DNA from: Thermoanaerobaculia bacterium
GTDB lineage: Bacteria > Acidobacteriota > Thermoanaerobaculia > Multivoradales > SZUA-115
Direction of reading: 5' to 3'
Assembly (NCBI GenBank): GCA_044869955.1
Contig: JBIOYC010000308.1
Location: 1 to 63,420, forward strand
DNA length: 63,420 nt
The notes below the pieces were generated by a model. The model made no database searches. It saw only the letters and a list, made by a program, of their open reading frames with translations, and was not told the origin of the DNA. Made by a program: the position numbers and the translations under genes. This document shows, one piece after another, positions 5,329 to 25,646 of the stretch (positions within the stretch are counted from its first letter, which is position 1; the number at the start of each line of letters is the position of its first letter).

Positions 5329-5517
5329 GCTCGGTGTTCCCGCCCACGAGGCGGCGTCTCAGCTGCCCGGACCAAGATTCGGTCACCGAAATTCCAGTAC
5401 TTCCATAGTTGGCGCCGCTCGTGATGTGAAGAACCATTGTCACGGATCGGGCTCCAGGGGTACTTCTTCCCTATTGAGCGCTCGTCAACGCAAGTTGGAG
5501 TGGAGGTATCCCTTTCG

Positions 5518-6886: not shown

Positions 6887-6923
6887 GAGTCGGTACCCGG
6901 AAACCAGAGACGCGGAGGCCCCG

Positions 6924-7736: not shown

Positions 7737-7799
7737 TCGCATCGGACCGCTCGCGGTGAGCGGCGGACCTGACCACGGTTTCGGGGAGGAGGCTCACCC

Positions 7800-8339
7800 G
7801 TGCACGGCTTCATCATCTCGGAGATCAAGAAGTACGTCGAGACCAAGCTCGGCCGCGAAGCCTGGCCCACTCTGCTGGAACAGGCCGGGCTGGGCAAGAA
7901 GGAGTACGAGAACTTCCTCATGTACCCCGACGAGGAAGTCGTCACCATGGTCGTCACGGCGTCGCAGATCACCGGTCTCGAGGTGTCGGTCATCCTCGAA
8001 GACTTCGGTCTGTTCATCGGCGGCGACCTGATCCGCATCTACAAGCCGCTGCTCAATCCCTCCTGGCGTACCGTCGAGTTTCTCGCCAATGTCGAGGACA
8101 CCATCCACCACGTGGTGCGCACTCGCAACCGTCAGGCCAAGCCGCCGGCCCTGGTCTGCTCCCGCACGGGTTCCAACGAGGTCACGGTGGTCTACCGTTC
8201 ACCACGCCGGATGTGCGCGCTGGCCAAGGGCATCATCCGCGGTGTGGCCGGGCACTACGGCGAGACCGTGGAGATCCGCGAAGCGACCTGCATGACCCAG
8301 GGGGACCCGACCTGTCAGATCAAGGTCCAGGTGAGCTGA
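7800..8339 (+). CDS. stand-alone H-NOX (haem NO/oxygen-binding, HNOB) domain protein
   Basis: The N-terminus MHGFIISEIKKYVETKLG is present. The proximal His context FLANVEDTIHHVV, then AKPP, then the YxSxR motif (VVYRSPRR) align with Tt H-NOX H102/P115/Y131-S133-R135 as I recall them. The GTG start is preceded by GGGGAGGAGG. Confidence 0.8.
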   Translation: MHGFIISEIKKYVETKLGREAWPTLLEQAGLGKKEYENFLMYPDEEVVTMVVTASQITGLEVSVILEDFGLFIGGDLIRIYKPLLNPSWRTVEFLANVEDTIHHVVRTRNRQAKPPALVCSRTGSNEVTVVYRSPRRMCALAKGIIRGVAGHYGETVEIREATCMTQGDPTCQIKVQVS

Positions 8340-8357
8340 GCAGGTCCGCCTCGGGGC

Positions 8358-8957
8358 TCAGAAGTAGTAGACCGACCAGACGTGGAAGGCCACCAGGGCC
8401 AGCAGCAGGCTGACGAACACCGTGTGAGCCAGCAGCCAGGTGGCGCGGAAGGGACGGCGGTGGTTCCGGCTCCCGTCGAGCCTCTCGCCGCGATCCTGCC
8501 GGCGTCCGGCGTGACGCAGCTTGAGGGCCTCGCCCAGCTTGCCCCCCACCCCCACCAGCACCGTGCCCACCAGGCTGGTCAGCAGCAAGCCGTTCAAGTT
8601 CGAGCCCCAACGACCCCCGGTGTGGACGACGATCAGCGGCAGGAGGCCAGCGCCGACGAGGATGTGGAGGACGCGCCAGCGCGCACGGTCTCCCGGCACG
8701 TGGACCTTGTTGCGCTTGACCAGAGCGTAGCCGACCTCGAGCAAGATCAGGCCCAGTGCTACGAAGCCCGTGACCTGCCGGAAGAAGTGGCTGCGGGTCC
8801 AGCGCGCGAGCTGGGCGAGGAGGCTTTCGCCGCCGTTGAGCAGCGCCTGCAGCATCGGCAGCATGGCCAGGACCGTCACTCCCAGCACGACGATCATGGG
8901 CAGCACCCGGAACTCCCAGCGCAGCCTCGGCTTGACCTTGATGGTTGCGGTGCTCAT
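8358..8957 (-). CDS. polytopic membrane protein, putative dihaem b-type cytochrome
   Basis: A 199-aa protein with 4-5 TM helices. Two transmembrane His pairs are each spaced by 13 residues (HILVGAGLLPLIVVH and HTVFVSLLLALVAFH). RBS GGGAGG; it is the last gene of the multihaem operon. Confidence 0.5.
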   Translation of the reverse strand: MSTATIKVKPRLRWEFRVLPMIVVLGVTVLAMLPMLQALLNGGESLLAQLARWTRSHFFRQVTGFVALGLILLEVGYALVKRNKVHVPGDRARWRVLHILVGAGLLPLIVVHTGGRWGSNLNGLLLTSLVGTVLVGVGGKLGEALKLRHAGRRQDRGERLDGSRNHRRPFRATWLLAHTVFVSLLLALVAFHVWSVYYF

Positions 8958-8969
8958 GGTCGGCCTCCC

Positions 8970-9563
8970 TCACGAAAGCGGCAAGGTGATCACGACCCCA
9001 CCGATCACGTCCCCGACCTTGAAGTCCTTGCGCGGGCTCTCGGCGTGGTCGTTGTGGCAGCCGACACAGGCCGGAGAGACGGCGACGTCGGCGTAGACGG
9101 CCATGAAATAGCGCTTGCCGTTGAATTCCTGGATGGTCCGAAAGGGTTTGGTGCGGTCGGAAATGACGGACGAGATGCCCTGCTTCTCGAAGTCGGTCTT
9201 CGGCAGGTTGGCTTTGTTGATCGCCCAGGGGCTGATCAGGGCGTAGCGCAGGCCCACCCCCTTTTCTGAGACCAACTGGGAGCCCATGCGCAGCATCTGG
9301 GCGGGCAGCGGCAGGGCCTTGTCCGCTTCGAAATGCTCGCTGGCCTTGATCACTCCCTCCTTGTTCTGCAGCCGCTGGACCACGCGGTCGGCGTAGACCG
9401 CGCGATCCGCCTCGATGACGGCGTGGATGTAGTCGGCGACCAGCTCGGGTGGAATGCCCGCGGGCGGAGCCGCGGCGGCGTCGCCGCAGTGGTCGAGCAG
9501 CAGCGAGACGGCAACGGCGGCGAGGGCCGCCCGGGTGGTGGCGCGCAGCGTGAAAGTCCTCAT
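8970..9563 (-). CDS. DUF3365 (Tll0287-like) c-type haem protein, secreted
   Basis: A signal peptide MRTFTLRATTRAALAAVAVSLLL and a C-terminal CVGCH haem motif within ...YFMAVYADVAVSPACVGCHNDH..., typical of DUF3365. ATG 9561-9563 is preceded by GGGGGAGG. Only the last 197 codons of the 622-aa track ORF are real. Confidence 0.75.
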   Translation of the reverse strand: MRTFTLRATTRAALAAVAVSLLLDHCGDAAAAPPAGIPPELVADYIHAVIEADRAVYADRVVQRLQNKEGVIKASEHFEADKALPLPAQMLRMGSQLVSEKGVGLRYALISPWAINKANLPKTDFEKQGISSVISDRTKPFRTIQEFNGKRYFMAVYADVAVSPACVGCHNDHAESPRKDFKVGDVIGGVVITLPLS

Positions 9564-9565
9564 GT

Positions 9566-10885
9566 CTATCCTCCCCCGCGGCTCCGCGCCGCCAGGTCTT
9601 TGATGAAACGGATGGAGGCCGCCCGTTCCCGCGGCCGGCCGGCGTAGCCGCGCCTGCCGAGATCGCGGTCCAGGAGGCTCGAGAGAGCCAGGTCGAGACC
9701 GTGGCAGCGCAGGCAGACCATGCCGGCCATGCGGTCGACCGGCTCCAAAGTGAACGTGTTGTTGTGGTTGACGACCACGCGCGGTCCCCTGCCTTCGTCG
9801 ATGGTCACCCGCGGCAGATGACAGGTGGCGCAGGTCACCTCGCCGGCTCCCGTGGGGCCCGGCCCGGAGCCGACCGTGCGGCCATGGGGAGAGGCCGTGA
9901 AGAGCCGGCTGTGCTCGTCGTCGTGGCAGGCCAGGCAGGCCTCGACGGCCGCCCGCCGGGTGTCCACGCTGTGCGGGTCGTGGCAGGTGCCGCAGGCCAT
10001 CGCAGCCGGGCGGTCCTTGCGGTCCTTCTTCATGGGCAGCCGCGCGTCGTCCGGCCCGAGGGCCGCCAGCTCCGCCTTGGCTCGTACGCCGTGCTTGCCG
10101 GCCCGCCAGGTCTCGTGCTCGAAGCCGTGGCAGTCCGCGCACTTGCCGAAGCCGGGGGAGCTGACGAAAGCAGCGCCCTCGCCGTGGCAGTCGCCGCAGC
10201 TCACCCCCGCCTCGCGGTGGCGGCTGGCGAGCCACGCTCGCTCGATGGCCGGGTCGCCCCGTCCGGGGGGGGCGTCCGCCGTGGCCGCCGGGCCGGCCGT
10301 GGGCTGCCGGAACGGGGGTAGCCCGTTGCGATCGACGAGGTCCGGCTTGTCGGCCTCCCGGGTGAGGAAGGCGGTGTTCAGCGTCCGATTGTCGTGGTAG
10401 TTGTGGCAACCCGCATCGCCGCAGGAGCTGGCGGGCAGGCCCTTGTGGCTGGCTCTCTTCTCGGGCACGTCGTCGTGGCAGGGGAAGCAGAAGGAGGCAT
10501 CGACCGTGACCCCGCGGGCCGCCACGTGATGCTCGGCGTGGCAGGTGATGCAGCGGGAGGCGTCCAGGCGGGCGAGGTCCTCGGCCCAGCGGGGGTCCTC
10601 GAAGACCCGGATGGAGTGGGTGTCCTGGGCGAGCTCGGCGCGGTGGCAACCGGCACAGGACTCGTTCTTGATCGCCTCGAATCCGCCGTGGCACGAGGAG
10701 CAAGCACCCTCGATCAGATGGTGACCGTCGGAGGTCCTGCCCGGGACGAAGATCGCGCGGTTGCCCGAGGCGAAGAGGATCCCGAGCACCGCGGCGACCA
10801 CTGCACCCGGCACCACGGGTCTCAAGAGCAGGCGCCACAGCGCCCCGGAGCCGCCTCCACCTCTCATCCCTGGCTCTACCCCCAT
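9566..10885 (-). CDS. multihaem cytochrome c (10 CxxCH plus one Cx4CH), N-terminally membrane-anchored
   Basis: Motifs CSSCH, CAGCH, CITCH, CFPCH, CGDAGCH, CGDCH, CADCH, CGTCH, CLACH, CATCH and CLRCH. The start is taken at ATG 10885 (alternatively 10867), ahead of the hydrophobic anchor LWRLLLRPVVPGAVVAAVLGILF. Confidence 0.85.
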   Translation of the reverse strand: MGVEPGMRGGGGSGALWRLLLRPVVPGAVVAAVLGILFASGNRAIFVPGRTSDGHHLIEGACSSCHGGFEAIKNESCAGCHRAELAQDTHSIRVFEDPRWAEDLARLDASRCITCHAEHHVAARGVTVDASFCFPCHDDVPEKRASHKGLPASSCGDAGCHNYHDNRTLNTAFLTREADKPDLVDRNGLPPFRQPTAGPAATADAPPGRGDPAIERAWLASRHREAGVSCGDCHGEGAAFVSSPGFGKCADCHGFEHETWRAGKHGVRAKAELAALGPDDARLPMKKDRKDRPAAMACGTCHDPHSVDTRRAAVEACLACHDDEHSRLFTASPHGRTVGSGPGPTGAGEVTCATCHLPRVTIDEGRGPRVVVNHNNTFTLEPVDRMAGMVCLRCHGLDLALSSLLDRDLGRRGYAGRPRERAASIRFIKDLAARSRGGG

Positions 10886-13493: not shown

Positions 13494-14366
13494 ATGTTCG
13501 GAGACAAGCGGACCGGAGCGGTCGTCTGCCGCGGCTGCGGCAGGTTGGTGGGGCGGAGCGAGAGCGCCTGCCCTTTTTGCGGCACCCGCAGCCCCTCGCT
13601 GATGGGACTCGAGCCCTGGCTGCGCCGGTTCGGCTCGGACTTCGGCTTCGTCGAGCTGGTGATGGGCGCCACGATCCTGCTCTACCTGGCCGTGGCCGCG
13701 CTCGATCCCCGCGGGCTCGCGGCGCTCATGAACCCCAGCCCGCGGAGTCTCCTCATTCTGGGCGCGAGCGGACCCCTGCCGGTGATCGAGCTCGGCCGCT
13801 GGTGGACCCTGCTCTCGGCCGGTTGGCTGCACGGTGGTCCGCTGCACATCTTCTTCAATCTGATGTGGATCCGGCAGCTGGCACCGGTCGTGGCTGAAGG
13901 CTACGGCGCCGCGCGCATGGTGGTGATCTACGTCGTCGGCTCGGTGGTCGGCTTCGTGTTCTCCACCTTCGGCTCCTTCGCCATGCTCGCGGCGAGCGCG
14001 ACCGGAGTGCTGCCCGACTTCCTGGCCAGGCACCTCGGCGGCTTGCTCTCAGTGGGGGCTTCCGCCGGGATCTTCGGTCTGTTCGGAGCCCTCATCTACT
14101 GGGGCCGGCGGGGTGGCTCGAGCCACCTCTCTCGCCAGGTGTGGGGCTGGGTGGTCTTCTTCTTCGTCCTCGGCTTCGTGCTGTCCAACGTCGACAACTG
14201 GGCCCACCTGGGCGGCCTCGCCGGCGGCTGGGTGACGGCCCGGATCCTCGATCCCCTGAAGCCCGAGAAGGCCACCCACGTCGCCTTCGCCCTGCTCCTC
14301 CTGCTCGCCACCGCCGCCTCCCTGGTCGCCTCCGTCCTGGTGCCGCTACCGGCGGGGCTAGGCTAG
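13494..14366 (+). CDS. rhomboid-family intramembrane serine protease with N-terminal zinc ribbon
   Basis: CRGCG...CPFCG at the N-terminus. Rhomboid motifs WWTLLSAGWLHGG, the catalytic GASAGIFGLFGA, and His in NWAHLGGLAGG. Confidence 0.85.
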   Translation: MFGDKRTGAVVCRGCGRLVGRSESACPFCGTRSPSLMGLEPWLRRFGSDFGFVELVMGATILLYLAVAALDPRGLAALMNPSPRSLLILGASGPLPVIELGRWWTLLSAGWLHGGPLHIFFNLMWIRQLAPVVAEGYGAARMVVIYVVGSVVGFVFSTFGSFAMLAASATGVLPDFLARHLGGLLSVGASAGIFGLFGALIYWGRRGGSSHLSRQVWGWVVFFFVLGFVLSNVDNWAHLGGLAGGWVTARILDPLKPEKATHVAFALLLLLATAASLVASVLVPLPAGLG

Positions 14367-14381: not shown

Positions 14382-15569
14382 CTACGGCAACCCCGCCAGC
14401 AGGTCCGCCACCGGCAGGCAGCGGATGCCGTTCTCGACGAAGTCGCGCTGGCCGTCGAGGACCACCTGGTAGGTGTGGGGGATCTTCAGGTGGTCGCGGA
14501 AGTAGACGAGGGCGGGATCGAGGCGGGTCTCGCTGAGCTTGACCTCGATCGCCGCCCAGGGCTTGCCGTCTGCCGTGAGCAGGAAGTCCACCTCGCGGCC
14601 GTCGCGGTCGCGCAGGTAGCGCAGATCCACCCGATAGCCCTCGCGATCCTCCAGCAGATGGCAGAGCTTTAGCAGGTGGAGGGCCACCAGGTTCTCGAGC
14701 CGGGCGCCCGGTGACGGCACCTGGCTCCAGTCCCAGAGATAGGCCTTGGGCATCCGCTTCAAACCCCGCGCGGACTGCACGGCGTAGGGGCGCAGCCGCA
14801 CCAGGTAGTAGAGCCGCTCCAGCACGTCCAACCAGTGCGTGACCGCGCGGTGGCTGACCTCGAGGTCCTCGCGCAGGGAGTTGGCCGAGAGCGGCGAAGC
14901 CACTCGCGCGGGCAGCAGGTCAGCGAGCACCTCGAGAGAGGAGAGGTCACGGACCGCTTCCAGGTCGCGCACGTCCTCGCGCAGGAACCGTTCGAAGCGC
15001 TCCTTCTGCCAGCGCCGATGGGTGCGCTCCGACTGTGCCAGGAAGGGCTCGGGAAAACCACCGAAACGGAGCAAGGTATCGACGGTCTCGCGCTCTCCCC
15101 GGCCCACTTCGAGCGGCTCGCCGGGGATGGGCAAGGATGCCGTGCTGCCACGGGCCTCGCCGTAGGAGACGGGGTGCAGGCGATAGTGGTGGTAGCGGCC
15201 CTGGAGGGAGTCTCCCCCGCGGCGGTAGACGTCGAGGCGGGCCGAGCCGGTCACCAAGAACTGGAGCGTCTCCTGGTGCTTGTCGTACTCCCCCTTGAGC
15301 CAGCCCTTCCAGCCTCTCCACTTGTGCAGCTCATCGAGGACGACCAGGGCTGGGCCGGCGGGCCAGCGGGCGGCGCGGATCAGGCCCCGGTCCTCTCGGT
15401 TGTCCCACGAGAAGTAGGCGCCGTGCTCGAAAGTGGCCAGAACCTGGCGCGCGAGAGTCGTCTTGCCCACCTGCCGCGGCCCGGCCACGAAGACCATCTT
15501 CCTCGCCAGGTCCTCGCGGATCGACGGCTCGAGGTAGCGGTGGAAGTCCACCGGCAGATTGTGCCACAA
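14382..15569 (-). CDS. AAA+ ATPase with DUF4143 C-terminal domain
   Basis: Walker A GPRQVGKTTLA, Walker B LVVLDELH, and a C-terminal restriction-endonuclease-like region (DRDGREVDFLL...AAIEVK). TTG start. Confidence 0.8.
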   Translation of the reverse strand: MWHNLPVDFHRYLEPSIREDLARKMVFVAGPRQVGKTTLARQVLATFEHGAYFSWDNREDRGLIRAARWPAGPALVVLDELHKWRGWKGWLKGEYDKHQETLQFLVTGSARLDVYRRGGDSLQGRYHHYRLHPVSYGEARGSTASLPIPGEPLEVGRGERETVDTLLRFGGFPEPFLAQSERTHRRWQKERFERFLREDVRDLEAVRDLSSLEVLADLLPARVASPLSANSLREDLEVSHRAVTHWLDVLERLYYLVRLRPYAVQSARGLKRMPKAYLWDWSQVPSPGARLENLVALHLLKLCHLLEDREGYRVDLRYLRDRDGREVDFLLTADGKPWAAIEVKLSETRLDPALVYFRDHLKIPHTYQVVLDGQRDFVENGIRCLPVADLLAGLP

Positions 15570-16388: not shown

Positions 16389-17342
16389 TTGTCGACCGCC
16401 ATCCTCGAAAGCCCCACCGCCCCCTCGCTCCTCCCCTTGGGTCGCCCGTTGCGGCAGGTGGAGCGGGTCGGGGGCACACCCCTGATCGACCTTTCCTTCC
16501 TGGTCGGTCGCAGCGGCGTCGAGCTGCTCGCCAAAGCGGAGATGGCCAACCCGGGCGGCTCGGTCAAGGACCGCGCGGCCCTGGCCATGATCGAGGAGGC
16601 CGGCCGGCGCGGGCTGATCGAGCCCGGTCGGCGGCTGCTCGACGCCACCTCGGGCAACACCGGCATCGCCCTCGCCATGATCGGTGCCGGCCGCGGTCTC
16701 GGCGTGACCCTCTGCCTGCCCGCCAACGCCAGCCGCGAGCGCAAGGCCATCCTCGGGGCCTACGGCGCCGAGCTGGTGCTGACCGATCCCCTCGAAGGCA
16801 GCGACGGCGCCATCCGCGAGGCCCGCCGCCTGGTGGCCGAGCACCCCGAGAGCTACGTCTACCTCGACCAGTACGCCAACCCCGAGAACTGGCTGGCTCA
16901 CTACCGCACCACCGGCCCGGAGATTTGGGCCCAGACCGGTGGTCGGATCACCCACTTCGTCACCGGTCTCGGAACCAGCGGCACCTTCATGGGTGTCGGC
17001 CGCTTCCTCCGCGAGTCCTCGCCGGCAGTGCGCCTGATCTCGATCGAGCCCGACTCGCCCCTGCACGGCCTCGAAGGCATGAAGCACATGGAGAGCGCCA
17101 TCGTGCCGCCGATCTACGACCCGGCCCTGGCCGACGAGGCGTGGGCGATCAGCACCGAGGATGCCTACGCCATGGTCCGGCGTCTGGCGCGGGAGGCGGG
17201 CCTGCTGGTGGGGGTCTCCTCCGGGGCCAACGTCGCCTCGGCTCTGGCCCTCGCCACGGGCCTCGAGCGCGGCGTAGTGGCCACCGTGCTCTGCGACGGT
17301 GCCGAGAAGTACCTCTCCGAGCCGTTCTGGGAGGAGCCGTGA
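16389..17342 (+). CDS. cysM: cysteine synthase (PLP-dependent; CysM-type, thiocarboxylate-dependent by context)
   Basis: The PLP lysine context NPGGSVKDRAAL, plus SGNTGIALA and GLGTSGTFMG. Followed by JAMM, MoaD-like and MoeZ-like genes. Confidence 0.9.
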   Translation: MSTAILESPTAPSLLPLGRPLRQVERVGGTPLIDLSFLVGRSGVELLAKAEMANPGGSVKDRAALAMIEEAGRRGLIEPGRRLLDATSGNTGIALAMIGAGRGLGVTLCLPANASRERKAILGAYGAELVLTDPLEGSDGAIREARRLVAEHPESYVYLDQYANPENWLAHYRTTGPEIWAQTGGRITHFVTGLGTSGTFMGVGRFLRESSPAVRLISIEPDSPLHGLEGMKHMESAIVPPIYDPALADEAWAISTEDAYAMVRRLAREAGLLVGVSSGANVASALALATGLERGVVATVLCDGAEKYLSEPFWEEP

Positions 17343-17770
17343 CCCGCATCGCCCTGTCCACCGACCAGCTGGAGAGCCTCACCCACCACGCCCGGGTGGC
17401 CTACCCAGAGGAAGGCTGCGGCATCCTGCTGGGGCGGCCGGGCGAGGCCTCCGGGGCGGTGGTCGAAGAGCTGGTGCTGGCCGACAACGAGCGGGCCGAT
17501 TCCCGCCACAACCGCTACGTGATCGCCCCGGAGACCGTCCTCGCCGCTCATCGCCGAGCCCGCGACGGGGGCCTCGACGTGGTCGGCTACTTCCACTCCC
17601 ACCCGGACTGCCCGGCGGTGCCCAGCGATTTCGACCGCGAGCACGCCTGGCCGGGCCTGTCCTATGTCATCGTCTCGGTGCGCGCGGGCGAAGTGGCGGA
17701 GGTGCGCAGCTGGCGCCTCGCCGACGACCGCGAGCGTTTCCGCGAAGAGACCCTGGAGACTCTCCGATGA
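17339..17770 (+). CDS. mec: JAMM/MPN+ metalloprotease (Mec-like)
   Basis: EEGCGILLG followed by the JAMM motif YFHSHPDCPAVPSDFD. GTG 17339 overlaps the cysM stop (GTGA). Only the last 143 codons of the 486-aa track ORF are real. Confidence 0.85.
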   Translation: MTRIALSTDQLESLTHHARVAYPEEGCGILLGRPGEASGAVVEELVLADNERADSRHNRYVIAPETVLAAHRRARDGGLDVVGYFHSHPDCPAVPSDFDREHAWPGLSYVIVSVRAGEVAEVRSWRLADDRERFREETLETLR

Positions 17771-18048
17771 GCGTCACCATCCACGTGCCCACCCCCCTGC
17801 GGAGCTACGCCGGCGGCCAGACCGAGGTGGAGGTCGAGGCCACCACCGTCGGCGGCGCCCTGCGCGCCCTGACCGGCCAGTACCCGAGCCTCTCGCGTCA
17901 CCTCTACACCGAGGCCGGAGCGCTGCGCAGTTTCGTCAACGTCTTCGTCAACGACACCAACGCCCGGGAGCTCTCCGGCGAGGCCACCGCCGTGGCGCCG
18001 GGGGACAGCCTGATGATCATCCCGGCGATCGCCGGGGGCCGGTCATGA
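17767..18048 (+). CDS. cysO: MoaD/ThiS-family sulfur-carrier protein (CysO-like), Gly-Gly followed by two extra residues
   Basis: A 93-aa beta-grasp-like sequence ending ...MIIPAIAGGRS. ATGA overlaps occur at both ends. Confidence 0.8.
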   Translation: MSVTIHVPTPLRSYAGGQTEVEVEATTVGGALRALTGQYPSLSRHLYTEAGALRSFVNVFVNDTNARELSGEATAVAPGDSLMIIPAIAGGRS

Positions 18049-19247
18049 CCGCGTTGCTTGATCCCTTCGTGGCTACCGAGGCGGCCCTCTCGCCGGGGGA
18101 GATCCGGCGCTACAGCCGCCACCTGATCCTGCCCGAGGTCGGCATGGAGGGGCAGAAGAAGCTCAAGGCCTCTCGGGTGCTGATGGTGGGGGCGGGCGGC
18201 CTGGGCTCTCCCCTCGGCCTCTACCTGGCCGCCGCGGGCGTGGGCTCGCTGGGAGTGGTGGAGTTCGACGTCGTCGACGAGTCCAACTTGCAGCGCCAGC
18301 TGCTCTACGGTCAGTCGAGCGTGGGCCGGCCCAAGCTCGAGGCGGCGGCGGAACGGCTCGCGGACATCAATCCCTACATCAAGATCGAGCCCCACCCCGT
18401 GCGGCTCTCGTCCGAGAACGCCCTGGAGCTATTCCAGGGCTACGACCTGGTGGTCGACGGCACCGACAACTTCCCCACTCGCTATCTGGTCAACGACGCC
18501 TGCGTGATGACCGGCAAGCCGAACGTCTACGGCTCGATCTTCCGCTTCGAGGGCCAGGTGTCGGTGTTCTGGGGAGCCCAGGGCCCCTGCTACCGCTGCC
18601 TCTTCCCCGAGCCGCCGCCTCCCGGCCTGGTGCCGTCCTGCGCCGAGGGCGGCGTGCTGGGCGTGCTGCCGGGCATCATCGGCGCCCTCCAGGCCAACGA
18701 GGTGGTGAAGCTCCTGCTCGGTATCGGCGACCCCCTGATCGGCCGCCTGGTGCTTTTCGACGCCCTGCGGCTCAAGTTCCGTGAGCTGAAGCTCAAGAAG
18801 AACCCGGAGTGCCCGGTCTGCTCGGAGCACCCCACACTGACGCAGCTGATCGACTACGAGCAGTTCTGCGGCCTGGGCCAGGGCGAGGCCCCGGTCGAGA
18901 CGGCGCCGGAGGTCGACGAGCTGCCCTGGGAGGTGACCTCCCTCGAGGTCAAGGCCTGGCTGGACGATGGCCGGGACCTGTTGCTCCTCGACGTGCGCAA
19001 CCCTCCCGAGCTGGCGATCTGCCGGATCGACGGCTCCCGCTTCCTGCCCCTTCCCGAGCTGCCGGAGCGGGTGGCGGAGCTGGACGGGGAGCAGGACCGC
19101 CTGATCGTGGCCTACTGCCACGGCGGCGTGCGCTCGCTCAAGGCTGCCCGCTTGCTGCGCGAGCAGGGTTTCGGCAAGGTGGTGAGCCTGGCCGGCGGCA
19201 TCGACGCCTGGAGCCGCCACGTCGACCCGCGGTTGCCGCGGTACTGA
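18045..19247 (+). CDS. moeZ: MoeB/ThiF-type adenylyltransferase fused to rhodanese (MoeZ-like)
   Basis: RYSRHLILPEVG, the nucleotide loop VGAGGLGSP, CxxC pairs (CYRC, CPVC), and a C-terminal rhodanese active site YCHGGVRS. Confidence 0.9.
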   Translation: MTALLDPFVATEAALSPGEIRRYSRHLILPEVGMEGQKKLKASRVLMVGAGGLGSPLGLYLAAAGVGSLGVVEFDVVDESNLQRQLLYGQSSVGRPKLEAAAERLADINPYIKIEPHPVRLSSENALELFQGYDLVVDGTDNFPTRYLVNDACVMTGKPNVYGSIFRFEGQVSVFWGAQGPCYRCLFPEPPPPGLVPSCAEGGVLGVLPGIIGALQANEVVKLLLGIGDPLIGRLVLFDALRLKFRELKLKKNPECPVCSEHPTLTQLIDYEQFCGLGQGEAPVETAPEVDELPWEVTSLEVKAWLDDGRDLLLLDVRNPPELAICRIDGSRFLPLPELPERVAELDGEQDRLIVAYCHGGVRSLKAARLLREQGFGKVVSLAGGIDAWSRHVDPRLPRY

Positions 19248-19340
19248 GGTGCAAAGAGGGCAGGCACAGGGGCCTGCCCCTACGAAGACCTCTGCGATCC
19301 GGCCGTAGGGGCAGGCCCCTGTGCCTGCCCTCGTCGCACC
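19248..19340. terminator. large perfect inverted repeat filling the convergent moeZ/anti-sigma gap (probable bidirectional terminator or REP-like element)
   Basis: The 29-nt arms GAGGGCAGGCACAGGGGCCTGCCCCTACG (19256-19284) and CGTAGGGGCAGGCCCCTGTGCCTGCCCTC (19304-19332) are exact reverse complements, separated by a 19-nt loop. An outer GGTGC/GCACC pair follows a 3x3 internal loop. Confidence 0.6.
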
Positions 19341-20386
19341 TACCGCCGAGCTGGCTCGACCAGCATCAGCTCGACGGTCCCGATCACCTCAGGCTTGGTG
19401 CCTGCCGGCTCGCCGAGGACCTCGAGAGTCAGCTCGCCGGCTGGGTAGCGCGTGGGTTCGATGAGGACGACGGCCGAGCCGGCGTCTCGGCTCATCGTCT
19501 CCTCACGGCTCTCGATCCGGTCGCTCTTGTCGCGCAAGCGGAACCGGAAGCGCTGGACATCTGGGTAGTCCTTGGCCAGGCGGTCCAGACGTACTGAAAC
19601 AGCTTGCAGACCCTGTGTGCGCAGGAGGCTCAGGATCTTGCCGCTTCCCCGGACAACGCCCTCGCGGCCGCTCTGGGGGTTGATCTGCGCTGGGCCGGGC
19701 AGAACCGAGGGCACTCCCTCGGCCAGCCGGGTAGGAACGGGCCGCGCGGTGCGCAGCCGCTCGAGCTCGAGCTGGAGTCGGTCCAACTCGGCGGCGCTGG
19801 CAGCGTTGCCCGTGGCCTTCGACTCCGCCTCGCGGACCCGCGCCGTCAGTTGCTCGACGGCTGCGCGATGCTCGGCGTCCCGACCCTGTTCGGTGCGGCG
19901 GTACTCCGCCACGGTGGCCGTGAGGTCGCTGCGTAGGGTCTGGTTCCACACCAGCAGCGCCGGCAGCAGGAGCCCGGCGATCGAAGCGGCGATCGGCAGC
20001 CAGCGAGGCACCTCGACCTTGCGGCCGAAGCGGCCAAACAGCACCTTGCCGCCGTTGGGCGAAGCCGCGCCGGCGGGCGTGGCCTCGAAGTCGGCCAGGC
20101 TCCGGCGGAGCAGGGCTACCTCTTCCTGGTAACGCGGTTCGCTTTCGATCCGCCGAGCCACCAGGGTCGGGTCGAGACCCGAAGTGGTGGTGCCCAGCAC
20201 GTAGTCGGTCAGGGCCTCGGCGGGAAGCTCCGCGCGGTAGATCTCGGCCGCGCGACGCAGCTCCTCGAGCTCGCGGCGGCAATCCGTGCAGCCTGCCAGG
20301 TGACCTTCGATCTCATCCTTCTCGCGAGGGTCGAGCGAGCCGTTCAAGAACCAGGGCAGCCGCTCGGCGATTTCAGTGCAGTTCAT
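19340..20386 (-). CDS. zf-HC2 anti-sigma factor, single-pass, with ~210-aa extracytoplasmic domain
   Basis: The N-terminus is MNCTEIAERLPWFLNGSLDPREKDEIEGHLAGCTDCRREL (the H-x3-C-x2-C motif) and the TM helix is WLPIAASIAGLLLPALLVW. ATG 20386 is preceded by GAGGTGAGGG, 7 nt after the sigma stop; the track ORF starts further upstream at 20524. Confidence 0.75.
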   Translation of the reverse strand: MNCTEIAERLPWFLNGSLDPREKDEIEGHLAGCTDCRRELEELRRAAEIYRAELPAEALTDYVLGTTTSGLDPTLVARRIESEPRYQEEVALLRRSLADFEATPAGAASPNGGKVLFGRFGRKVEVPRWLPIAASIAGLLLPALLVWNQTLRSDLTATVAEYRRTEQGRDAEHRAAVEQLTARVREAESKATGNAASAAELDRLQLELERLRTARPVPTRLAEGVPSVLPGPAQINPQSGREGVVRGSGKILSLLRTQGLQAVSVRLDRLAKDYPDVQRFRFRLRDKSDRIESREETMSRDAGSAVVLIEPTRYPAGELTLEVLGEPAGTKPEVIGTVELMLVEPARR

Positions 20387-20393
20387 CGATCCC

Positions 20394-20996
20394 TCACCTC
20401 CCGACATGCTTAGGCTGGGCCGGGGGGGAGGCGTTACCTCCCGGTGTCGATGCGATGGCGGCCAGGTCCTCACGCACGGCGAGGGCGCGACGCCGGCAGC
20501 GCAACACGCGTACGCGCAACGCACCTTCCGCCACGCCCAGGCGGTCGCTCATCTCGCGGTAGGAGAGGCCGTCGAAGATCATCTGCCAGAGCCGGCGGCA
20601 GTCGTCGCTCATCTCGTCGAGCACCCGGAAGAGGAGATCCCGGGTCTCCCGGGACTGCGAGCTCTGCGCCGCGGCCTCGAGGACCGCGTCGCCCCGCTGA
20701 TCGACGGTCTCGAGCTCCTCCCAAGCCACCCGCCGGCGGGCCCGTAGGCGATCGAGGCAGGCGTTGGCGGTGACCCGCCAGACGTAGGTCTTGAGGCTCG
20801 ACTCGCCGCGGAAGGTGCCCCTACCGAAGAGTCGGGTCAGCTCCAGGCGGACGTCCTGCAGCACGTCGTCGAAGTCTCCCTCCAGCCGGCTACGGAAGGA
20901 GGCTGCCGCCCGGCGGATCCAATCGTCCACCTCGGCGAACGTACCAGGCTCACCGCTCAGATAGCGGTTGATCCGGCTCTGATCGTCGACGCTCAC
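20394..20996 (-). CDS. ECF-type RNA polymerase sigma factor (sigma-70 regions 2 and 4)
   Basis: Region 2 (DDVLQDVRLELTR...LKTYVWRVTANACLDRLR) and a region 4 HTH (DGLSYREMSDRLGVAEGALRVRVLRCR). GTG start. Confidence 0.9.
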   Translation of the reverse strand: MSVDDQSRINRYLSGEPGTFAEVDDWIRRAAASFRSRLEGDFDDVLQDVRLELTRLFGRGTFRGESSLKTYVWRVTANACLDRLRARRRVAWEELETVDQRGDAVLEAAAQSSQSRETRDLLFRVLDEMSDDCRRLWQMIFDGLSYREMSDRLGVAEGALRVRVLRCRRRALAVREDLAAIASTPGGNASPPAQPKHVGR

Positions 20997-21113
20997 TCTC
21001 TCGGGCCCCCGGGGTCGGCGGCTTGATGCTGGCCGAAGTGACGGAAGGAGTCAACGATCCGAACCCGGCGCGAGCCTGTCAGCCGGAGCGGAGTAAGATC
21101 GAATCTCAACGAA

Positions 21114-24100
21114 ATGCTTCTAACCTGGGCTGTGCTCGCTGTCCTGGCTGCTCTTCCGGGGGGAACTTTCCCCTGTGATGGGCCATTGCTCGAGCCGGGG
21201 CTCCCGCTGCGGGCGAGCCTCTCAGAGGGACAAACCCGCACCTTCGCGCTCGACGTGCCCGTAGGTCAGCTGGCTCGGGTGGTGGTCACCCAGGGTTGCA
21301 CAGACTTCGCGGTCCAAGTCAGGACACCGGCGGGGGAGGTCCTCGAGTTCGACACTCCCAATGGCCCGCAGGGATCCGAGATCGTCGAGTGGATTGCCGA
21401 GACTTCCGGCCGGTCATGCATCCAGGTCCCGCACGTCGGCGACCAGCCTCCAGGTCAACTCGAGATCGTCCTCGAAGCCCTCCGACCGGCGAACGCCGAA
21501 GATCGTCTGCGGGTCTCGGCCTTTCGCAACGCTTACGAAACCTACAGGGCCCTCGACCTCCGCCAGGTCCCTCTCTGCCGCCTCAGTGACTGCAGCGCCG
21601 CCCTTGCGCGGTGGCAGGCTGTCGGCCAGGCGGACTGGCAAAGCTTTTTCGAGCTCGAGCTAGCGCTTGCAGCCGAGAAGGAAGCCGAGACGAGGGAGCG
21701 GCTGAAACGGGCCTTCGAGTTGGCGAAAGAGGCCACCAACCCCCACCTCCTACACCTGATCGCGGCCCAGTTGCCGGCAGGAGATCCGCGTGCCCTCGAG
21801 GGATTCGAGACCAGCGTCCGGGCCTGGGCAGCCGGGGGCTGTCGAGCCAAGCAGCTGCGCTCTTTGCACGGGGCCGCCAAGGCTGCGCGCCAGCTCGGCG
21901 ACTTCGAACGGGCTGCGGGCTTTCTCGCCGAGGCGTTCGAGGTCGCCCGCAGCCTCGACGATCCTGCCGAGCTGGCCCAGACCTGGATGCTCGAAGGGGT
22001 GCACCGGATGGCCAAGCCGGAGCCTCCGGAGCTGGCGCTCGCCGCCTACGGGGAGGCGCAGAAGCAACTCGCCCGGATGACCGATGCGGTCCGGCAGCGT
22101 GAGCTCGAGAACGAGCTGACGGCCAGCCGGGCGGTGGCGCTCTACTACCAAGGCAACACAGATCAGGCGCTGCAGGAGCTGGAGGCCCTCTTGAAGCGCC
22201 TAGTGGCGGCGAAGGCACGCACGGCCGGACCCGGGGAGCTGGGGGCCTACTACACCCTGGGGAGCCTCTTCCTGACCTTCGGCGCCGTGGACCGGGCCGC
22301 GATCGCCTATCGCCAGGGGCTCGGCCTGGCCGAAAGCCGAAAGCTGACGGGCTGGCGAGTGAGGTTCAGCATCAGCCTGGCCACGACGTTGCGACAGGCC
22401 GATCGCGACCAAGATGCCGGGGAGCTCTACCAGGAGGCGATCCGGCTGGCGGATGAGGGTGGGCCGGACCAAGCGGCGGCCTTGTGCGGCCTGGGAGCTC
22501 TCGAGCTGAAGGCCCGGCGGCTCGAGCCGGCCCAGATCTACCTGGAGCAAGCCGAGGAGATCTGGCGTCGGAGGCAGGAGCCCGAACGTCTGGCCGAAGT
22601 CCTGCTGGAACGAGCCCGCGTAGCTCGAGAGTCCGGAGATCGGACTGGCGCGTTGGCCAGGACGGAAGAAGGCCTCCGGCGATTGCCGGGAACCGGCCTC
22701 TCGGTGATCCGAGCCGCCCTCCAGGAGCTCCAGGCGCGCCTTCTGGCGGACGCCGAGGACCTGGAACCGGCGCTCCATGCAGTCGAGGCCGCCATCCGTT
22801 TCGACGAGGTGCTGCGCAGCAGCGTGGTCTCTCACGACCTGCGTACCCATCTGCTGGCCCGCCGCCGGGCGCGCTATGAGCTCGAGATCGATCTGCTCTT
22901 GCGCCTGGCCGAGCGGTCGCCGAGCAGGGCGGCGGAGTGGCGGGAAAAGGCTCTGCGGGCCAGCGAGAAGGCCCGAGCCCGCAGCTTCGCGGAGCTTCTG
23001 GCCGAGTCGGACCTCACTCGTGCTCTACAGGTGCCGCCGGATCTCGCTCGCGAGTACGAGCGGCTGCGTGGGGATCTCGAGGCCGTTCAGCGCCAGTGGC
23101 TGGATCGCGCTGCGACCCTGCCCGCCTCTTCGCTGGAGGTGCAGCGCCTCGGCGTTGCCCGTGATCAGGCCCTGGCCGCCTTCGAGCAGACTTACGAGCG
23201 GATCCGAGAGCATCAGCTCCGCCAGCGCAGCCATCGCCTGCCCCCGACCGAGCCCCCGGATCTCAGGGAGATCCAGTCGAGCCTGGCAGAGGGCGATGCG
23301 CTGCTGGAGTACGTGCTCGGAGACAGAGGGGGAGCTGTTTTCGTTGTCACCTCCAAGGGGATGGAAGCGAGGCGACTGGCCGTTGGTGCCGGCGAGGTCG
23401 AGGGGAGGCAGGAGGACCTCCAGAGCGCCATCGAGGGCCGAGAGACTCGCGACGATGACGAATTCCGGGAGGCCGCGAGCTGGCTCTATCAGCAGCTCCT
23501 GGCTCCGGCCGAAGCGTGGACGAGGGATCGGAGTCGCCTGATCGTCGTGCCGGACGGACCTTTGCACCGCCTGAACTTCGAGACACTGTTGCTCTCCGGG
23601 GGTGAAGCTCCGGAGGGCGCTCCGCTCCGCTACGCGGTCGAGCGTTGGGCGATCTCCTACGTGCCTTCGGCGACCGTTCGCATGCAGCTCCTGCGGCAGC
23701 CGAGTAAGTCCGGCCGGCAGATCGAGCTGCTCGCACTGGCTGATCCGGCGCCTCCGGCGGCACCGGGCTCGGGCGTGCCGACCGGTTCGCGCCGAGGCCG
23801 GACGGCCCTCCTGCTGCCCAGCCTCGCCGGCGCCAGGCGGGAGGTCCAGGAGATTGGCGGGCTTTTCGGACCGCGAGCGAAGGTCCTGGTGGGAGAAGCC
23901 GCCAGTGAGGCGGCGGTGCAGGCGACAGCGGCCAGGGCGCGATACCTACACTTCGCGGTGCACAACTATTTCGACGAGGTGCGCCCGAGCTCCATGGGTC
24001 TGGTCCTCGCTCCAGCGGGCGAAGGTGATGGGTTCCTGGGGCTTGCTGAGATCGAGTCGATGCATCTGGACGCAGAGCTGGTGGTGTTGTCCGCGTGCGA

Positions 24101-24371
24101 CTCGGCGCGAGGGGAACAAAAGGCTGGTGAGGGGGTCATCGGTCTCGTGCGGGCGTTCATGACCGCTGGCGCTGAGAACGTGGCCGTCAGCCTCTGGCTG
24201 GCCGACGACGAGGAGACCCCGGCTCTGATGGTCGCGTTCTATCGGGGTCTATTGGCCGGAGGGTCTCAAAGCGAGGCGCTGCGCGAGGCCAAGCTGGCGC
24301 TCATCGCTCGGAGTGGTAGGGCAGGAGAGCCCGAGGTCTGGGCTCCCTTCATCCTATTTGGAGCTCGCTAG
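21114..24371 (+). CDS. TPR-repeat / CHAT-domain (caspase-like) protease with N-terminal signal-like segment
   Basis: A 1085-aa protein. The N-terminus is hydrophobic (MLLTWAVLAVLAALPGG) and the central ~600 aa are Ala/Leu/Glu-rich helical TPR-like repeats. The C-terminal CHAT has a His/Cys dyad context (YLHFAVHNYFD and LVVLSACDSARGE...GLVRAF). Confidence 0.85.
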   Translation: MLLTWAVLAVLAALPGGTFPCDGPLLEPGLPLRASLSEGQTRTFALDVPVGQLARVVVTQGCTDFAVQVRTPAGEVLEFDTPNGPQGSEIVEWIAETSGRSCIQVPHVGDQPPGQLEIVLEALRPANAEDRLRVSAFRNAYETYRALDLRQVPLCRLSDCSAALARWQAVGQADWQSFFELELALAAEKEAETRERLKRAFELAKEATNPHLLHLIAAQLPAGDPRALEGFETSVRAWAAGGCRAKQLRSLHGAAKAARQLGDFERAAGFLAEAFEVARSLDDPAELAQTWMLEGVHRMAKPEPPELALAAYGEAQKQLARMTDAVRQRELENELTASRAVALYYQGNTDQALQELEALLKRLVAAKARTAGPGELGAYYTLGSLFLTFGAVDRAAIAYRQGLGLAESRKLTGWRVRFSISLATTLRQADRDQDAGELYQEAIRLADEGGPDQAAALCGLGALELKARRLEPAQIYLEQAEEIWRRRQEPERLAEVLLERARVARESGDRTGALARTEEGLRRLPGTGLSVIRAALQELQARLLADAEDLEPALHAVEAAIRFDEVLRSSVVSHDLRTHLLARRRARYELEIDLLLRLAERSPSRAAEWREKALRASEKARARSFAELLAESDLTRALQVPPDLAREYERLRGDLEAVQRQWLDRAATLPASSLEVQRLGVARDQALAAFEQTYERIREHQLRQRSHRLPPTEPPDLREIQSSLAEGDALLEYVLGDRGGAVFVVTSKGMEARRLAVGAGEVEGRQEDLQSAIEGRETRDDDEFREAASWLYQQLLAPAEAWTRDRSRLIVVPDGPLHRLNFETLLLSGGEAPEGAPLRYAVERWAISYVPSATVRMQLLRQPSKSGRQIELLALADPAPPAAPGSGVPTGSRRGRTALLLPSLAGARREVQEIGGLFGPRAKVLVGEAASEAAVQATAARARYLHFAVHNYFDEVRPSSMGLVLAPAGEGDGFLGLAEIESMHLDAELVVLSACDSARGEQKAGEGVIGLVRAFMTAGAENVAVSLWLADDEETPALMVAFYRGLLAGGSQSEALREAKLALIARSGRAGEPEVWAPFILFGAR

Positions 24372-24430
24372 CGAACGACGACGTTTGCGGTAACGGAGAG
24401 TTTCAAGGCCAGGCCCAAGTGAGCACTGCC

Positions 24431-24466
24431 CACCGTCTTGCGCCGAAACGGTGCGGCTGTTTTTTC
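24431..24466 (+). terminator. weak hairpin plus T6 run after the CHAT gene
   Basis: CACCG..CGGTG or GCCG..CGGC stems are followed by TGTTTTTTCT. A T-run is unusual in this GC-rich DNA, but the stem is weak. Confidence 0.35.
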
Positions 24467-24488
24467 TCGAGGATGAGGAGGAAATGCC

Positions 24489-24974
24489 ATGCCTGTGGGA
24501 AACCAGTCCGATCGTGTGACCGACGTCAGCATCCTGCCACCTCCCCCTTCGCCCCCGCCGCCCGGCGTCGTGATCAGCGCCGTGGTCTTCCTGGTCACCG
24601 CGGCCGTCCTGATCGCCCTGGGCCTCGTCGAGAACGAGTTCCAGGTGCTTGCCGCGGTTGGCGGAGGTTTTCTGGTGGCCGGCTTGACGCAGCTCGCCAT
24701 CCTGCAGCTTCAGGGAAATGCTCAGACCGGGATGCTGACTATCCGTCTCGCGCCCGGCTTGACCAGCCCCTACCCCGAGGAGCTCAACACTGCGGATCCT
24801 GCTGCGAAGCTCTACTTCACCGTCTGGCCGGCTACCGGCCCCGGGACTGGAACGGCGGAAGTGATCGAGCACCCGACGGCCGGGAAGGATCCGAAGACCA
24901 CCTTCTACCTCGACGAGAAGCGGGAGTTGATGGCGGAGGAGTCACAGTTCGAGGTGAACGAAGCGCTGGCGTGA
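24489..24974 (+). CDS. hypothetical 2-TM protein, paralog 1 (conserved N-terminal 20-mer MPVGNQSDRVTDVSILPPPP)
   Basis: RBS GGAGGA; two hydrophobic helices. A C-terminal ~85-aa domain is shared with the next gene (TIRL.P...PEE.NTA...TGPGTG...HP.AGK.PK). Confidence 0.6.
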   Translation: MPVGNQSDRVTDVSILPPPPSPPPPGVVISAVVFLVTAAVLIALGLVENEFQVLAAVGGGFLVAGLTQLAILQLQGNAQTGMLTIRLAPGLTSPYPEELNTADPAAKLYFTVWPATGPGTGTAEVIEHPTAGKDPKTTFYLDEKRELMAEESQFEVNEALA

Positions 24975-25130
24975 GTGCCTCGGCTCGGGCTGCGCTCGTC
25001 GCCTGGAAGCGTGCGGGATCCGCTTTCTCGCAGTAACGGAGCGCCAGGACCCGCGCCCAACGACTGACTGTCGGACGCCTCTCCTACCGAGGGGCGTAAT
25101 CTGTTGTCTCGAGATTGCGGAGGAAATGCC

Positions 25131-25646
25131 ATGCCCGTGGGGAACCAATCCGATCGCGTGACCGACGTCAGTATCCTGCCGCCTCCTCCCGAGTCCGGGC
25201 CACTCCCGGAGGGCGACGCATTGCCCGTGGCCGAGATGCTCGGAGGGGGGGCCTTCATGCTCTACGGCCTCGCCGTCCGAGGAGCGCGTGAGCTCGCCTT
25301 CGTGGGCCTAGGGCTCTTCGTGGGTGGGTTGATCCAGTACGTTGCCCAGCGCGCCGGCCGGCGCCGGCTGCCCCGTCCCCGGGTGTTTTTTTCCCAGCTG
25401 AGCTCCTGGACCATCCGACTCGACCCCTACGAGGTCAGCGATCTGCCCGAGGAGTTCAACACCGCCGAGGCTTCGGCCGAGCTGGTCTGGAACGTCCATC
25501 CGGACACCGGCCCGGGAACCGGTGCGACCATCGAGATCCATCATCCGATGGCCGGCAAGGAGCCGAAGGTCACCTGTCTGCTCGAGGTGGACCACCAGAA
25601 GGGCCTGAGCACCTCGGGCTTCGTGATCAACGACTACCTGGTCTGA
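25131..25646 (+). CDS. hypothetical 2-TM protein, paralog 2 (same N-terminal 20-mer)
   Basis: It has the same GGAGGAAATGCC-ATG initiation region as paralog 1, so the start is taken at ATG 25131 rather than the track's 25104. The architecture matches paralog 1. Confidence 0.6.
   Translation: MPVGNQSDRVTDVSILPPPPESGPLPEGDALPVAEMLGGGAFMLYGLAVRGARELAFVGLGLFVGGLIQYVAQRAGRRRLPRPRVFFSQLSSWTIRLDPYEVSDLPEEFNTAEASAELVWNVHPDTGPGTGATIEIHHPMAGKEPKVTCLLEVDHQKGLSTSGFVINDYLV

Follow-up and report, generated by a model that had tools for sequence, protein, structure and literature searches.

Control of a sigma factor of the extracytoplasmic function (ECF) type by a protein with TPR-like repeats and a caspase-like CHAT domain is known from the DdvS/DdvA pair of Myxococcus xanthus. 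DdvA is a single-pass anti-sigma factor with a ~900-residue periplasmic TPR-CHAT part (PMC11506125; PMC6061681), whose structure is deposited as 8ROT (data statement, PMC11506125). Its authors regard it as the sole characterised anti-sigma factor with TPR-CHAT, and find fused homologues in Myxococcota and one Comamonas species only (PMC11506125). They propose that CHAT, acting in trans as a site-1 protease, clips the linker of the transmembrane (TM) helix, after which RseP frees the ECF sigma factor DdvS; DdvA without its TPR-CHAT part becomes exposed to RseP (PMC11506125). The pair controls an island with a cyclic oligonucleotide-based antiphage signalling system (CBASS) and CRISPR-Cas, TPR-CHAT being the proposed sensor of a phage-associated protein, and only a subset of DdvA-like pairs adjoin defence genes (PMC11506125). 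Here we analyse a locus (positions 19340-25646) in a stretch of 63,420 nt, hereafter the window, from a Thermoanaerobaculia bacterium of the phylum Acidobacteriota (contig JBIOYC010000308.1, assembly GCA_044869955.1), in which genes for an ECF sigma factor and an anti-sigma factor are divergent from a gene for a separate TPR-CHAT protein, itself followed by two genes for small membrane proteins.

Two further kinds of system serve for comparison. In type III-E CRISPR loci, the Craspase arm comprises the TPR-CHAT protein Csx29, Csx30, Csx31 and the sigma factor CASP-sigma/RpoE (PMC10028731). RseA/DegS/RseP of E. coli and RsiW/PrsW/RasP of B. subtilis are the classical cases of regulated intramembrane proteolysis of anti-sigma factors (PMC11506125, PMC10028731). 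Our literature searches on CHAT proteins with ECF sigma or anti-sigma factors returned the DdvA and Craspase papers only, in neither of which a split form is described, and the ECF reclassification paper is silent on CHAT in its main text; we provisionally take the split form to be new, the ECF Hub context tables lying outside this comparison.

A conserved four-gene module of Acidobacteria

The ECF sigma factor gene (20394-20996, minus strand; 200 aa) has Pfam matches to Sigma70_r2 at 1.5e-07 and to Sigma70_r4_2 at 2.5e-05 (24.3 bits, just under the 25.7-bit cut-off), and an NCBIfam match to TIGR02937 (ECF) at 6.6e-21. It falls within a close-knit subfamily (46 to 66% identity in our alignment A14) with the signatures L(R/K)TY(L/V)WRV and EG(A/T)LRVRVLRCR. 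Three Cys, unusually for ECF sigma factors, are invariant in this alignment (C80, C133 and C167 in the window protein). The gene for the anti-sigma factor, a single-pass class I protein of the zinc-binding anti-sigma (ZAS) type (19340-20386, minus strand; 348 aa), starts 7 nt past the sigma stop codon in the table of open reading frames (ORFs), and the cytoplasmic domain of its product matches zf-HC2 in Pfam at 3.1e-10. Its translation reads as one hydrophobic helix at about residues 129-151 followed by ~197 residues, which divide into a ~100-residue linker and a ~100-residue, beta-rich looking C-terminal domain. This last domain aligns with those of CHAT-linked anti-sigma factors from other loci, across different sigma subfamilies, and an anti-sigma profile gave weak matches in the PDB to RslA, the DdvA N-terminus (8RLZ, E = 0.058) and RsiW.

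On the other strand, the gene at 21114-24371 (plus strand) encodes a caspase-like protein of 1085 aa that matches the Pfam families CHAT at 5.6e-64 and TPR_12 at 2.2e-09. The motifs HFAVHNYFD (23949-23975) and LSACDSARGE (24087-24116), in which an initial annotation of the locus had placed a His/Cys dyad, are exact in the translation, and the dyad is there: H950 (codon at 23961-23963) and C995 (24096-24098) are invariant across 33 aligned homologues. From the sequence, we assume the window protein to be an active protease. A model built by AlphaFold2 (AF2) from the 33 homologues had a predicted local distance difference test score (pLDDT) of 84.5 and a predicted template modelling score (pTM) of 0.80, and laid the protein out as a helix (2-12), a beta-sandwich (25-122), a TPR-like solenoid (128-710) and the CHAT domain (720-1085). 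The signal-like N-terminus that had been noted initially is consistent with the modelled helix and the beta-sandwich after it. Because of this N-terminus, and because those of orthologues read as signal or lipoprotein peptides (LVASC in locus L001, GLSVAC in protein P0007, LFLTTGC in locus L088), the protein is predicted to be exported and to reside outside the cytoplasmic membrane. Together with the single-pass anti-sigma factor, this agrees with the envelope location that had been suggested for the module. The two small genes downstream (24489-24974, 161 aa, and 25131-25646, 171 aa, both plus strand) encode the paralogues that we call twin 1 and twin 2. GC content is even over the whole locus, and for all five genes the ORF table, Pfam and NCBIfam bore out the coordinates and domain calls with which the analysis began.

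Linkage of these genes was examined from both ends. On the CHAT side, 185,579 species genomes were scanned with a CHAT-domain alignment of three sequences, which gave 79 loci, mostly from metagenome-assembled genomes of Acidobacteriota, whose ORFs were called and then searched with our own hidden Markov models (HMMs) for sigma factor, anti-sigma factor and CHAT. Of the 64 loci whose upstream flank reached 1.5 kb or more, 33 had an ECF sigma gene at most 1.5 kb from the CHAT gene. The density of ECF sigma genes was 0.177 per kb near CHAT, whereas more distant parts of these loci had 0.0068 per kb (26-fold enrichment; binomial P = 8e-18). On the sigma side, metagenomes were scanned with alignment A14 and 80 loci were recovered. 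A divergent TPR-CHAT gene was present in 37 of 38 with at least 3.6 kb upstream, 57 of the 58 that extended 1 kb or more downstream had an anti-sigma HMM match beside the sigma gene, and a small ORF containing a TM helix came directly 3' of CHAT in 33 of the 35 with sequence past the CHAT stop codon. The initial annotation had made its reading depend on synteny in related genomes and had proposed that co-occurrence be counted; the gene order is kept, and sigma factor, anti-sigma factor, CHAT and small protein are linked far beyond chance. We conclude with high confidence that the four function together, as a conserved module for envelope signalling in Acidobacteria.

Gene order in the nearest relatives is that of the window. 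In L088 to L090, all from Thermoanaerobaculia, a ThiF/rhodanese gene is followed by those for anti-sigma factor, sigma factor, CHAT and small protein, and the ThiF/rhodanese neighbour in L088 corresponds to the window gene at 17664-19247. With ThiF-rhodanese as left neighbour in L088 too, the module occupies a conserved chromosomal position. Elsewhere the parts are rearranged but stay together: L001 has sigma and anti-sigma genes divergent from CHAT and then a gene for a 70-aa two-TM protein; in L003 the genes for sigma factor, zf-HC2 anti-sigma factor and CHAT are codirectional in one operon with 4-nt overlaps; L005 has the anti-sigma gene directly upstream of CHAT; and in L007 and L008 CHAT and two small genes are followed by convergent anti-sigma and sigma genes. 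P0038, one of the matches among relatives of the CHAT protein, is a single polypeptide with both zf-HC2 and CHAT, and fusions of this kind (DdvA, P0038) indicate that the separate proteins work together. Two variations were also seen. In L026, tandem TPR-CHAT genes (3356-6580 and 6837-10169) stand beside a single sigma/anti-sigma pair, with a gene for a small proline-motif membrane protein (10237-10539) after the second, and Peptidase_C14 (caspase/metacaspase) genes occur near some modules (L003 5013-7085, L007 2306-3283, L008 2308-3285).

Relation to DdvA and proposed mechanism

The CHAT protein is far from any database sequence, its nearest relative there being only 30% identical, and a single-sequence search of the PDB gave no useful match. 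A full-length profile was swamped by TPR proteins in the same database, and a CHAT-only profile was used instead. It ranked DdvA (8ROT) first at 5.2e-16, followed by the Craspase TPR-CHAT protein (2.4e-11), separase (~5e-07) and Csx29 (5.8e-06). In a Foldseek search of the PDB with the AF2 model, DdvA again came first (8RW5 and 8ROT; 1.0e-16), then Csx29 (2.2e-15), separase and Craspase TPR-CHAT, with low global TM-scores for all of these multi-domain matches. DdvA is thus the closest solved relative as judged by sequence profile and, narrowly, by comparison of the predicted structure.

Architecture points the same way. As in DdvS/DdvA, the window ECF sigma gene adjoins a gene whose product has an N-terminal zinc-type anti-sigma domain and a single TM helix, a TPR-CHAT part with a His-Cys dyad is predicted to lie outside the cytoplasmic membrane, and CHAT could be the site-1 protease, or a steric cap, that precedes RseP in the logic proposed for DdvA. 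Unlike DdvA, the window TPR-CHAT is a separate, divergently transcribed and predicted secreted protein (TPR-CHAT is split off in 37 of 38 loci of the sigma subfamily) with an extra N-terminal beta-sandwich, whereas the anti-sigma factor has its own ~100-residue C-terminal outer domain; the module also has a fourth conserved component, the small membrane protein, adjoins no defence island and belongs to a different phylum, Acidobacteriota. The window locus is, in our view, a split, two-polypeptide version of the DdvS/DdvA switch, with DdvA as its true precedent.

We propose that the class I single-pass anti-sigma factor would hold the ECF sigma factor at the membrane, and that the exported TPR-CHAT protease would work on the outer face together with the anti-sigma C-terminal outer domain. 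A signal sensed via the TPR/beta-sandwich part of the CHAT protein would lead CHAT, as site-1 protease, to cut the outer linker of the anti-sigma factor and so remove its outer portion; alternatively, CHAT would cease to shield that portion. Intramembrane (site-2) proteolysis would then free the sigma factor. This resembles the RseA and RsiW systems, in which a single-pass anti-sigma factor likewise holds an ECF sigma factor and the extracytoplasmic site-1 step depends on a signal, a step for which the window architecture fits and offers a candidate. It differs from them in that the candidate site-1 protease is a dedicated caspase-fold TPR-CHAT protein encoded with the pair, not one of DegS or PrsW type, and in that the module has no RseB-like partner. 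Compartments match throughout: a CHAT protein with a signal or lipoprotein peptide goes with an anti-sigma factor that carries both a TM helix and an outer domain, and a CHAT protein lacking such a signal goes with a partner lacking a TM helix. The anti-sigma C-terminal domain and TPR-CHAT are hence always in one compartment, as expected if they are in contact. We hold CHAT-mediated cleavage of the anti-sigma factor with moderate confidence, and the whole explanation, a split DdvS/DdvA-like envelope switch of Acidobacteria working by this mechanism, with confidence a little above even.

Transcription signals bear on whether the CHAT gene is a regulator of the sigma factor or one of its targets. 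A tentative sigma-70-like promoter for the sigma/anti-sigma operon, TTGACT-17 nt-CAGCAT (21026-21054, minus strand), was picked out by eye in an alignment of the divergent intergenic regions, where it is kept between the window and L088/L089; its counterpart in L001 is TTGACT-17-TAGGAT. Ahead of the CHAT gene, a tentative -10-like element, TAAGAT (21094-21099, plus strand), lies 15 nt before the start codon, and by eye TA(A/G)GAT recurs at the equivalent position in orthologous loci. A consensus promoter scan called no promoter in the locus, these two candidates included, and orthologue comparison gave no ECF-type promoter motif. All that it brought out, apart from the sigma-70-like elements, was a AAGGATAGGAT block that is conserved where the ribosome-binding site of the sigma gene lies. 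A sigma-70-like -10 element at CHAT and no obvious ECF motif would fit a constitutively made sensor.

The CHAT/small-protein operon might instead be the output of the sigma factor, an envelope protease and a membrane protein induced by a stress that the anti-sigma factor senses alone. Divergent operons that have their intergenic region in common typify a regulator with its target, neighbouring genes are found in many ECF regulons, and the anti-sigma factor has an outer domain of its own that could be the sensor. Yet fused anti-sigma-TPR-CHAT proteins exist (DdvA, PMC11506125; P0038), many loci have CHAT inside the sigma/anti-sigma operon with overlapping codons, the conserved -10 element before CHAT is sigma-70-like and not ECF-like, and the compartment of CHAT tracks that of the anti-sigma C-terminal domain. 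We judge this alternative unlikely, though the least so of those considered here.

Several points weigh against the split-switch explanation that we favour. Autoproteolysis of DdvA is a proposal in its source paper and was not demonstrated there (PMC11506125), and for the window we infer physical contact, anti-sigma cleavage, signal and regulon. The window sigma factor lies outside the DdvS group, in a different ECF subfamily, and DdvS is absent among its PDB matches at E <= 0.01; orthologue comparison found neither a sigma-specific promoter motif nor a regulon. The lead of DdvA over Csx29 in Foldseek is marginal, and TM-scores are higher for the Csx29 and Craspase TPR-CHAT chains. The window protein has Asn after the catalytic His, where homologues have Ala or Gly. 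Finally, the modules compared differ in parts that might have been thought essential. Between the window and L088 the sigma factors are 66% identical, the anti-sigma N-termini 45% and the CHAT proteins 32%, and the L088 anti-sigma factor (1266-2123, minus strand) lacks the HxxxCxxC zinc ligands, with LADSPEL in place of HLAGCTDC. As this is the closest orthologue, zinc or redox sensing is not conserved and cannot be an essential function of the module. The L088 CHAT protein in turn has no N-terminal beta-sandwich, which therefore is not a universal docking site.

The small membrane proteins and the surroundings of the module

The initial annotation had recognised two paralogous proteins with two TM helices (2-TM) and of no known family, and this description stands: the twins are 42% identical by BLAST and 47% by MAFFT, each is predicted to form a two-helix membrane hairpin, and neither has a match in Pfam, NCBIfam or PADLOC. 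Twin 1 has the N-terminal tail MPVGNQSDRVTDVSILPPPP, two predicted helices (residues 25-47 and 52-75) and then ~85 residues of C-terminal region; twin 2, whose ORF opens at 25104 with a conserved Met at 25131, shares the first 20 residues of twin 1 and has six K/R just past its second TM helix. Over the first 20 codons (24489-24548 and 25131-25190) the two genes differ at 8 synonymous and 0 non-synonymous sites, and divergence begins at codon 21. Such a pattern in the tail points to strong purifying selection rather than to recent gene conversion.

Homologues of the twins are scarce. A word-indexed search returned only the twins themselves, and none was found in the first 88 loci; a full HMMER search of 1.84 billion representative proteins added one, P0065 (E = 7.7e-11), a hypothetical protein of a Thermoanaerobaculia bacterium that keeps M1, P2, N5, Q6, R9, D12 and the PPPP run of the tail. 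Its locus has the familiar order, ThiF/rhodanese, anti-sigma factor and sigma factor (both minus strand), TPR-CHAT and P0065 (both plus strand), and another twin-type protein follows CHAT in L148. More generally, in loci orthologous to the window (type A), CHAT is in nearly all cases followed by a gene whose product, 60 to 190 aa long, has a short N-terminal tail containing (V/I)P-x-x-PPP(R/P), then hydrophobic helices (one or two) and a basic stretch. An HMM made from ten such proteins, with the window sequences left out, found further members after other CHAT genes and ranked twin 1 best of 378 window ORFs (E = 3.3e-05), which indicates that a fast-evolving fourth component is present here in duplicate and with a C-terminal extension, as the twins. 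From these sequences, the small hairpin protein appears to be a fourth membrane partner in the module, with the N-terminal tail as its conserved element.

There are precedents for small membrane proteins acting alongside anti-sigma factors. In B. subtilis, YhdK acts in this way with YhdL/SigM. YxlD does so with YxlC/SigY (PMC7826278). As with YhdK and YxlD, a small multi-TM protein is here co-encoded with an ECF sigma/anti-sigma pair; unlike them, and with no sequence relation to either, the small gene follows the protease gene and not that for the anti-sigma factor, and its product has a conserved N-terminal polyproline tail.

By analogy with Csx30 and Csx31, it had been suggested initially that the twins are substrates of CHAT or the true receivers of the signal. 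The post-CHAT position, kept in 33 of 35 loci, and the constraint on the tail (8 synonymous, 0 non-synonymous) would suit such a role, and TPR domains commonly bind short peptides. Topology argues otherwise. Small proteins of this family have 1 to 6 K/R in the 15 residues past the second TM helix and mostly 0 in the hairpin loop, and this distribution predicts that both termini of 2-TM forms are cytoplasmic, away from the exported protease, a prediction that has weak evidence in the case of twin 1. The L014/L002 subfamily has a weak first hydrophobic segment, such that the tail could face outward, and the topology of the small proteins overall is not settled. A profile of the twins matched no chain by sequence in a PDB set that includes the Cas7-11/Csx29/Csx30 complex, and the AF2 model of twin 1 (from a three-sequence alignment; pLDDT 50), with the TM hairpin modelled and the C-terminal region not, is too poor for folds to be compared. 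With their termini predicted inside and CHAT outside, the twins look very unlikely as protease substrates or receivers.

The leader of each small gene contains a terminator-like hairpin with a T-run, at 24438-24456 for the first and 25075-25097 for the second (plus strand). The two hairpins differ in sequence but share their position, ~30 nt ahead of the start codon. Local hairpins form when the leaders are folded, with weak overall z-scores (0.62, -2.24 and -0.46; -2.24 for the leader of the second gene), and they might act as partial terminators or as attenuators, keeping twin expression under that of CHAT. Both leaders also share GTAACGGAG-N15-GCCCAA, which we considered as a promoter motif and discarded, as it is not kept in L088.

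Around the module, the initial statement that cas genes and CRISPR arrays are lacking was confirmed to the extent examined: we found no CRISPR-like array in the 63 kb and no cas-like gene among the 20 larger window ORFs scanned, small ORFs being scanned in part only. The larger ones include FadB-like, UvrA, pullulanase, MacB/FtsX, M48 peptidase, FHA-RDD, AlkZ-like and rhomboid products, and some have no match. Neighbours of the module are housekeeping genes (sulfur-carrier/ThiF, ABC-F, PBP1A, UvrA, pullulanase), and many orthologous loci have SIMPL and cupin genes after it.

This setting matters for the biological role. Like DdvS/DdvA, the module could be a phage-sensing switch, with the exported TPR-CHAT protein as detector of a phage or envelope protein and the sigma factor as activator of defence genes elsewhere in the genome. 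The precedent is that DdvA/DdvS controls a CBASS and CRISPR-Cas island (PMC11506125), and the claim, which concerns role, is compatible with the mechanism proposed above. On the other hand, a PADLOC search with the five module proteins gave no match, the neighbours are housekeeping genes, with SIMPL and cupin and not defence genes in orthologous loci, and the conserved chromosomal position is unlike that of mobile defence islands. We consider a phage-sensing role distinctly unlikely.

Other features of the surroundings are recorded here in their own right. Upstream, at 16389-19247, lies a sulfur-carrier-type cluster whose genes are cysteine synthase-like, MPN/JAMM-like, ThiS/MoaD-like and of ThiF-rhodanese type; the ThiF and rhodanese domains were assigned by Pfam in the L088 orthologue, and the other names were read from translations. 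An AAA-type ATPase gene ~4 kb from the module (14382-15569, minus strand) matches the PADLOC candidate defence family PDC-S01 at 1.1e-54, and no link between an ATPase of this type and the module was seen in other loci. A gene for a rhomboid-family intramembrane protease (13494-14366, plus strand) is ~5 kb away. The largest window ORF, of 1183 aa (49886-53437, minus strand), has no Pfam or PADLOC match, and two overlapping ORFs of 898 or 1092 aa (41562-44258, plus strand; 41128-44406, minus strand) have no Pfam match and an ambiguous coding strand. Downstream of the module in L001 (9900-11000), two HicB-like/HicA-like toxin-antitoxin pairs, named from their translations, occur with tRNA-like remnants, and this segment looks like an integration hotspot.

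Craspase, cytoplasmic triads and significance

The initial annotation had read the locus as a stand-alone, CRISPR-less switch resembling the Craspase arm. A CRISPR-independent syntenic module is what we find; the Craspase arm as its nearest relative is not, as the CHAT profile favours DdvA over Csx29 (5e-16 against 6e-06 in rounded values). The two do share features: in both, the gene for a TPR-CHAT protease is linked to those for an ECF sigma factor and the inhibitor of this factor, the two have the TPR-CHAT fold class in common, and protease-gated release of a sigma factor, which we infer for the window, would be the logic of each. Craspase, however, is cytoplasmic, RNA-guided and bound to Cas7-11, whereas the window CHAT protein is predicted to be exported and no cas or CRISPR partners were found; nor is Csx30 a class I membrane anti-sigma factor as in the window. 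The comparison of the twins and of the anti-sigma factor with Csx30 and Csx31 that had been suggested gave no match at the level of sequence, from either profile, in the PDB sequence set that includes 8EEY, the Cas7-11/Csx29/Csx30 complex. The resemblance to Craspase is hence one of logic, not of membership.

A reading of the locus as what remains of a type III-E locus after loss of Cas7-11 and array is already contradicted, and we give it next to no credence. It would account for a TPR-CHAT protein and an ECF sigma factor side by side, and Csx29 (Foldseek E = 2e-15) does come close behind DdvA. But the CHAT protein is predicted to be exported and is nearer DdvA by sequence profile, the window sigma factor scores 29 bits against a cut-off of 100 bits with the type III-E sigma model CAS_III-E_sigma (NF041236), nothing in the module matched Csx30 or Csx31 in the PDB sequence set, and Acidobacteria carry the module widely and in stable synteny, with no cas genes beside it.

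A second type of locus lies closer to Craspase. In Chloroflexota, Actinomycetota and some Acidobacteriota, we found triads (L049 4516-8759, L062 912-5083, L080 4553-8759, L068 2500-6770, L077 4572-8771, L063 4742-8756) of an ECF sigma factor, a soluble middle protein of ~160-215 aa and a TPR-CHAT protein, the latter two both free of signal peptides and TM helices. At its N-terminus the middle protein is anti-sigma-like, and its C-terminal part is a beta-sandwich; it gave a NOMO-like match at 2.7e-07 and weak ones to CarboxypepD_reg. A profile of the triad CHAT domains matched Craspase TPR-CHAT at 1.6e-13, Csx29 at 7e-10 and DdvA at 1e-3, the reverse of the order for the window type. The three-gene logic is alike in the two types, with export signals and a TM helix in the window type only. 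No description of these cytoplasmic triads was found in the literature searched. By sequence, the idea of a CRISPR-less Craspase arm appears to fit them better than it does the window locus, and as a lead for further work they could be relatives of the stock that gave type III-E its Csx29/sigma arm.

A broader scheme can be put forward only tentatively, and we think it more doubtful than not. TPR-CHAT, anti-sigma factor and ECF sigma factor would make up an old, widespread, CRISPR-independent cassette with an exported lineage (fused in DdvA, split in Acidobacteria) and a cytoplasmic lineage nearer Craspase, from whose kind type III-E would have recruited its arm. The polyproline-tailed hairpin protein would be an essential fourth part of the exported lineage and might, for example, be what connects CHAT activity with the membrane or with site-2 proteolysis.

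Being split, such a system lends itself to testing more readily than a fused one, since the protease, the candidate substrate and the accessory protein can be expressed and mutated separately, and site-1 cleavage of an anti-sigma factor by a CHAT protease, still an unproven idea, thereby becomes directly testable. Altogether, the TPR-CHAT anti-sigma logic, reported as nearly confined to Myxococcota, exists in Acidobacteria as a common split four-gene module whose parts stay together in more than 95% of the loci of one sigma subfamily, and its cytoplasmic cousins suggest a possible origin for the Csx29/sigma arm of Craspase.

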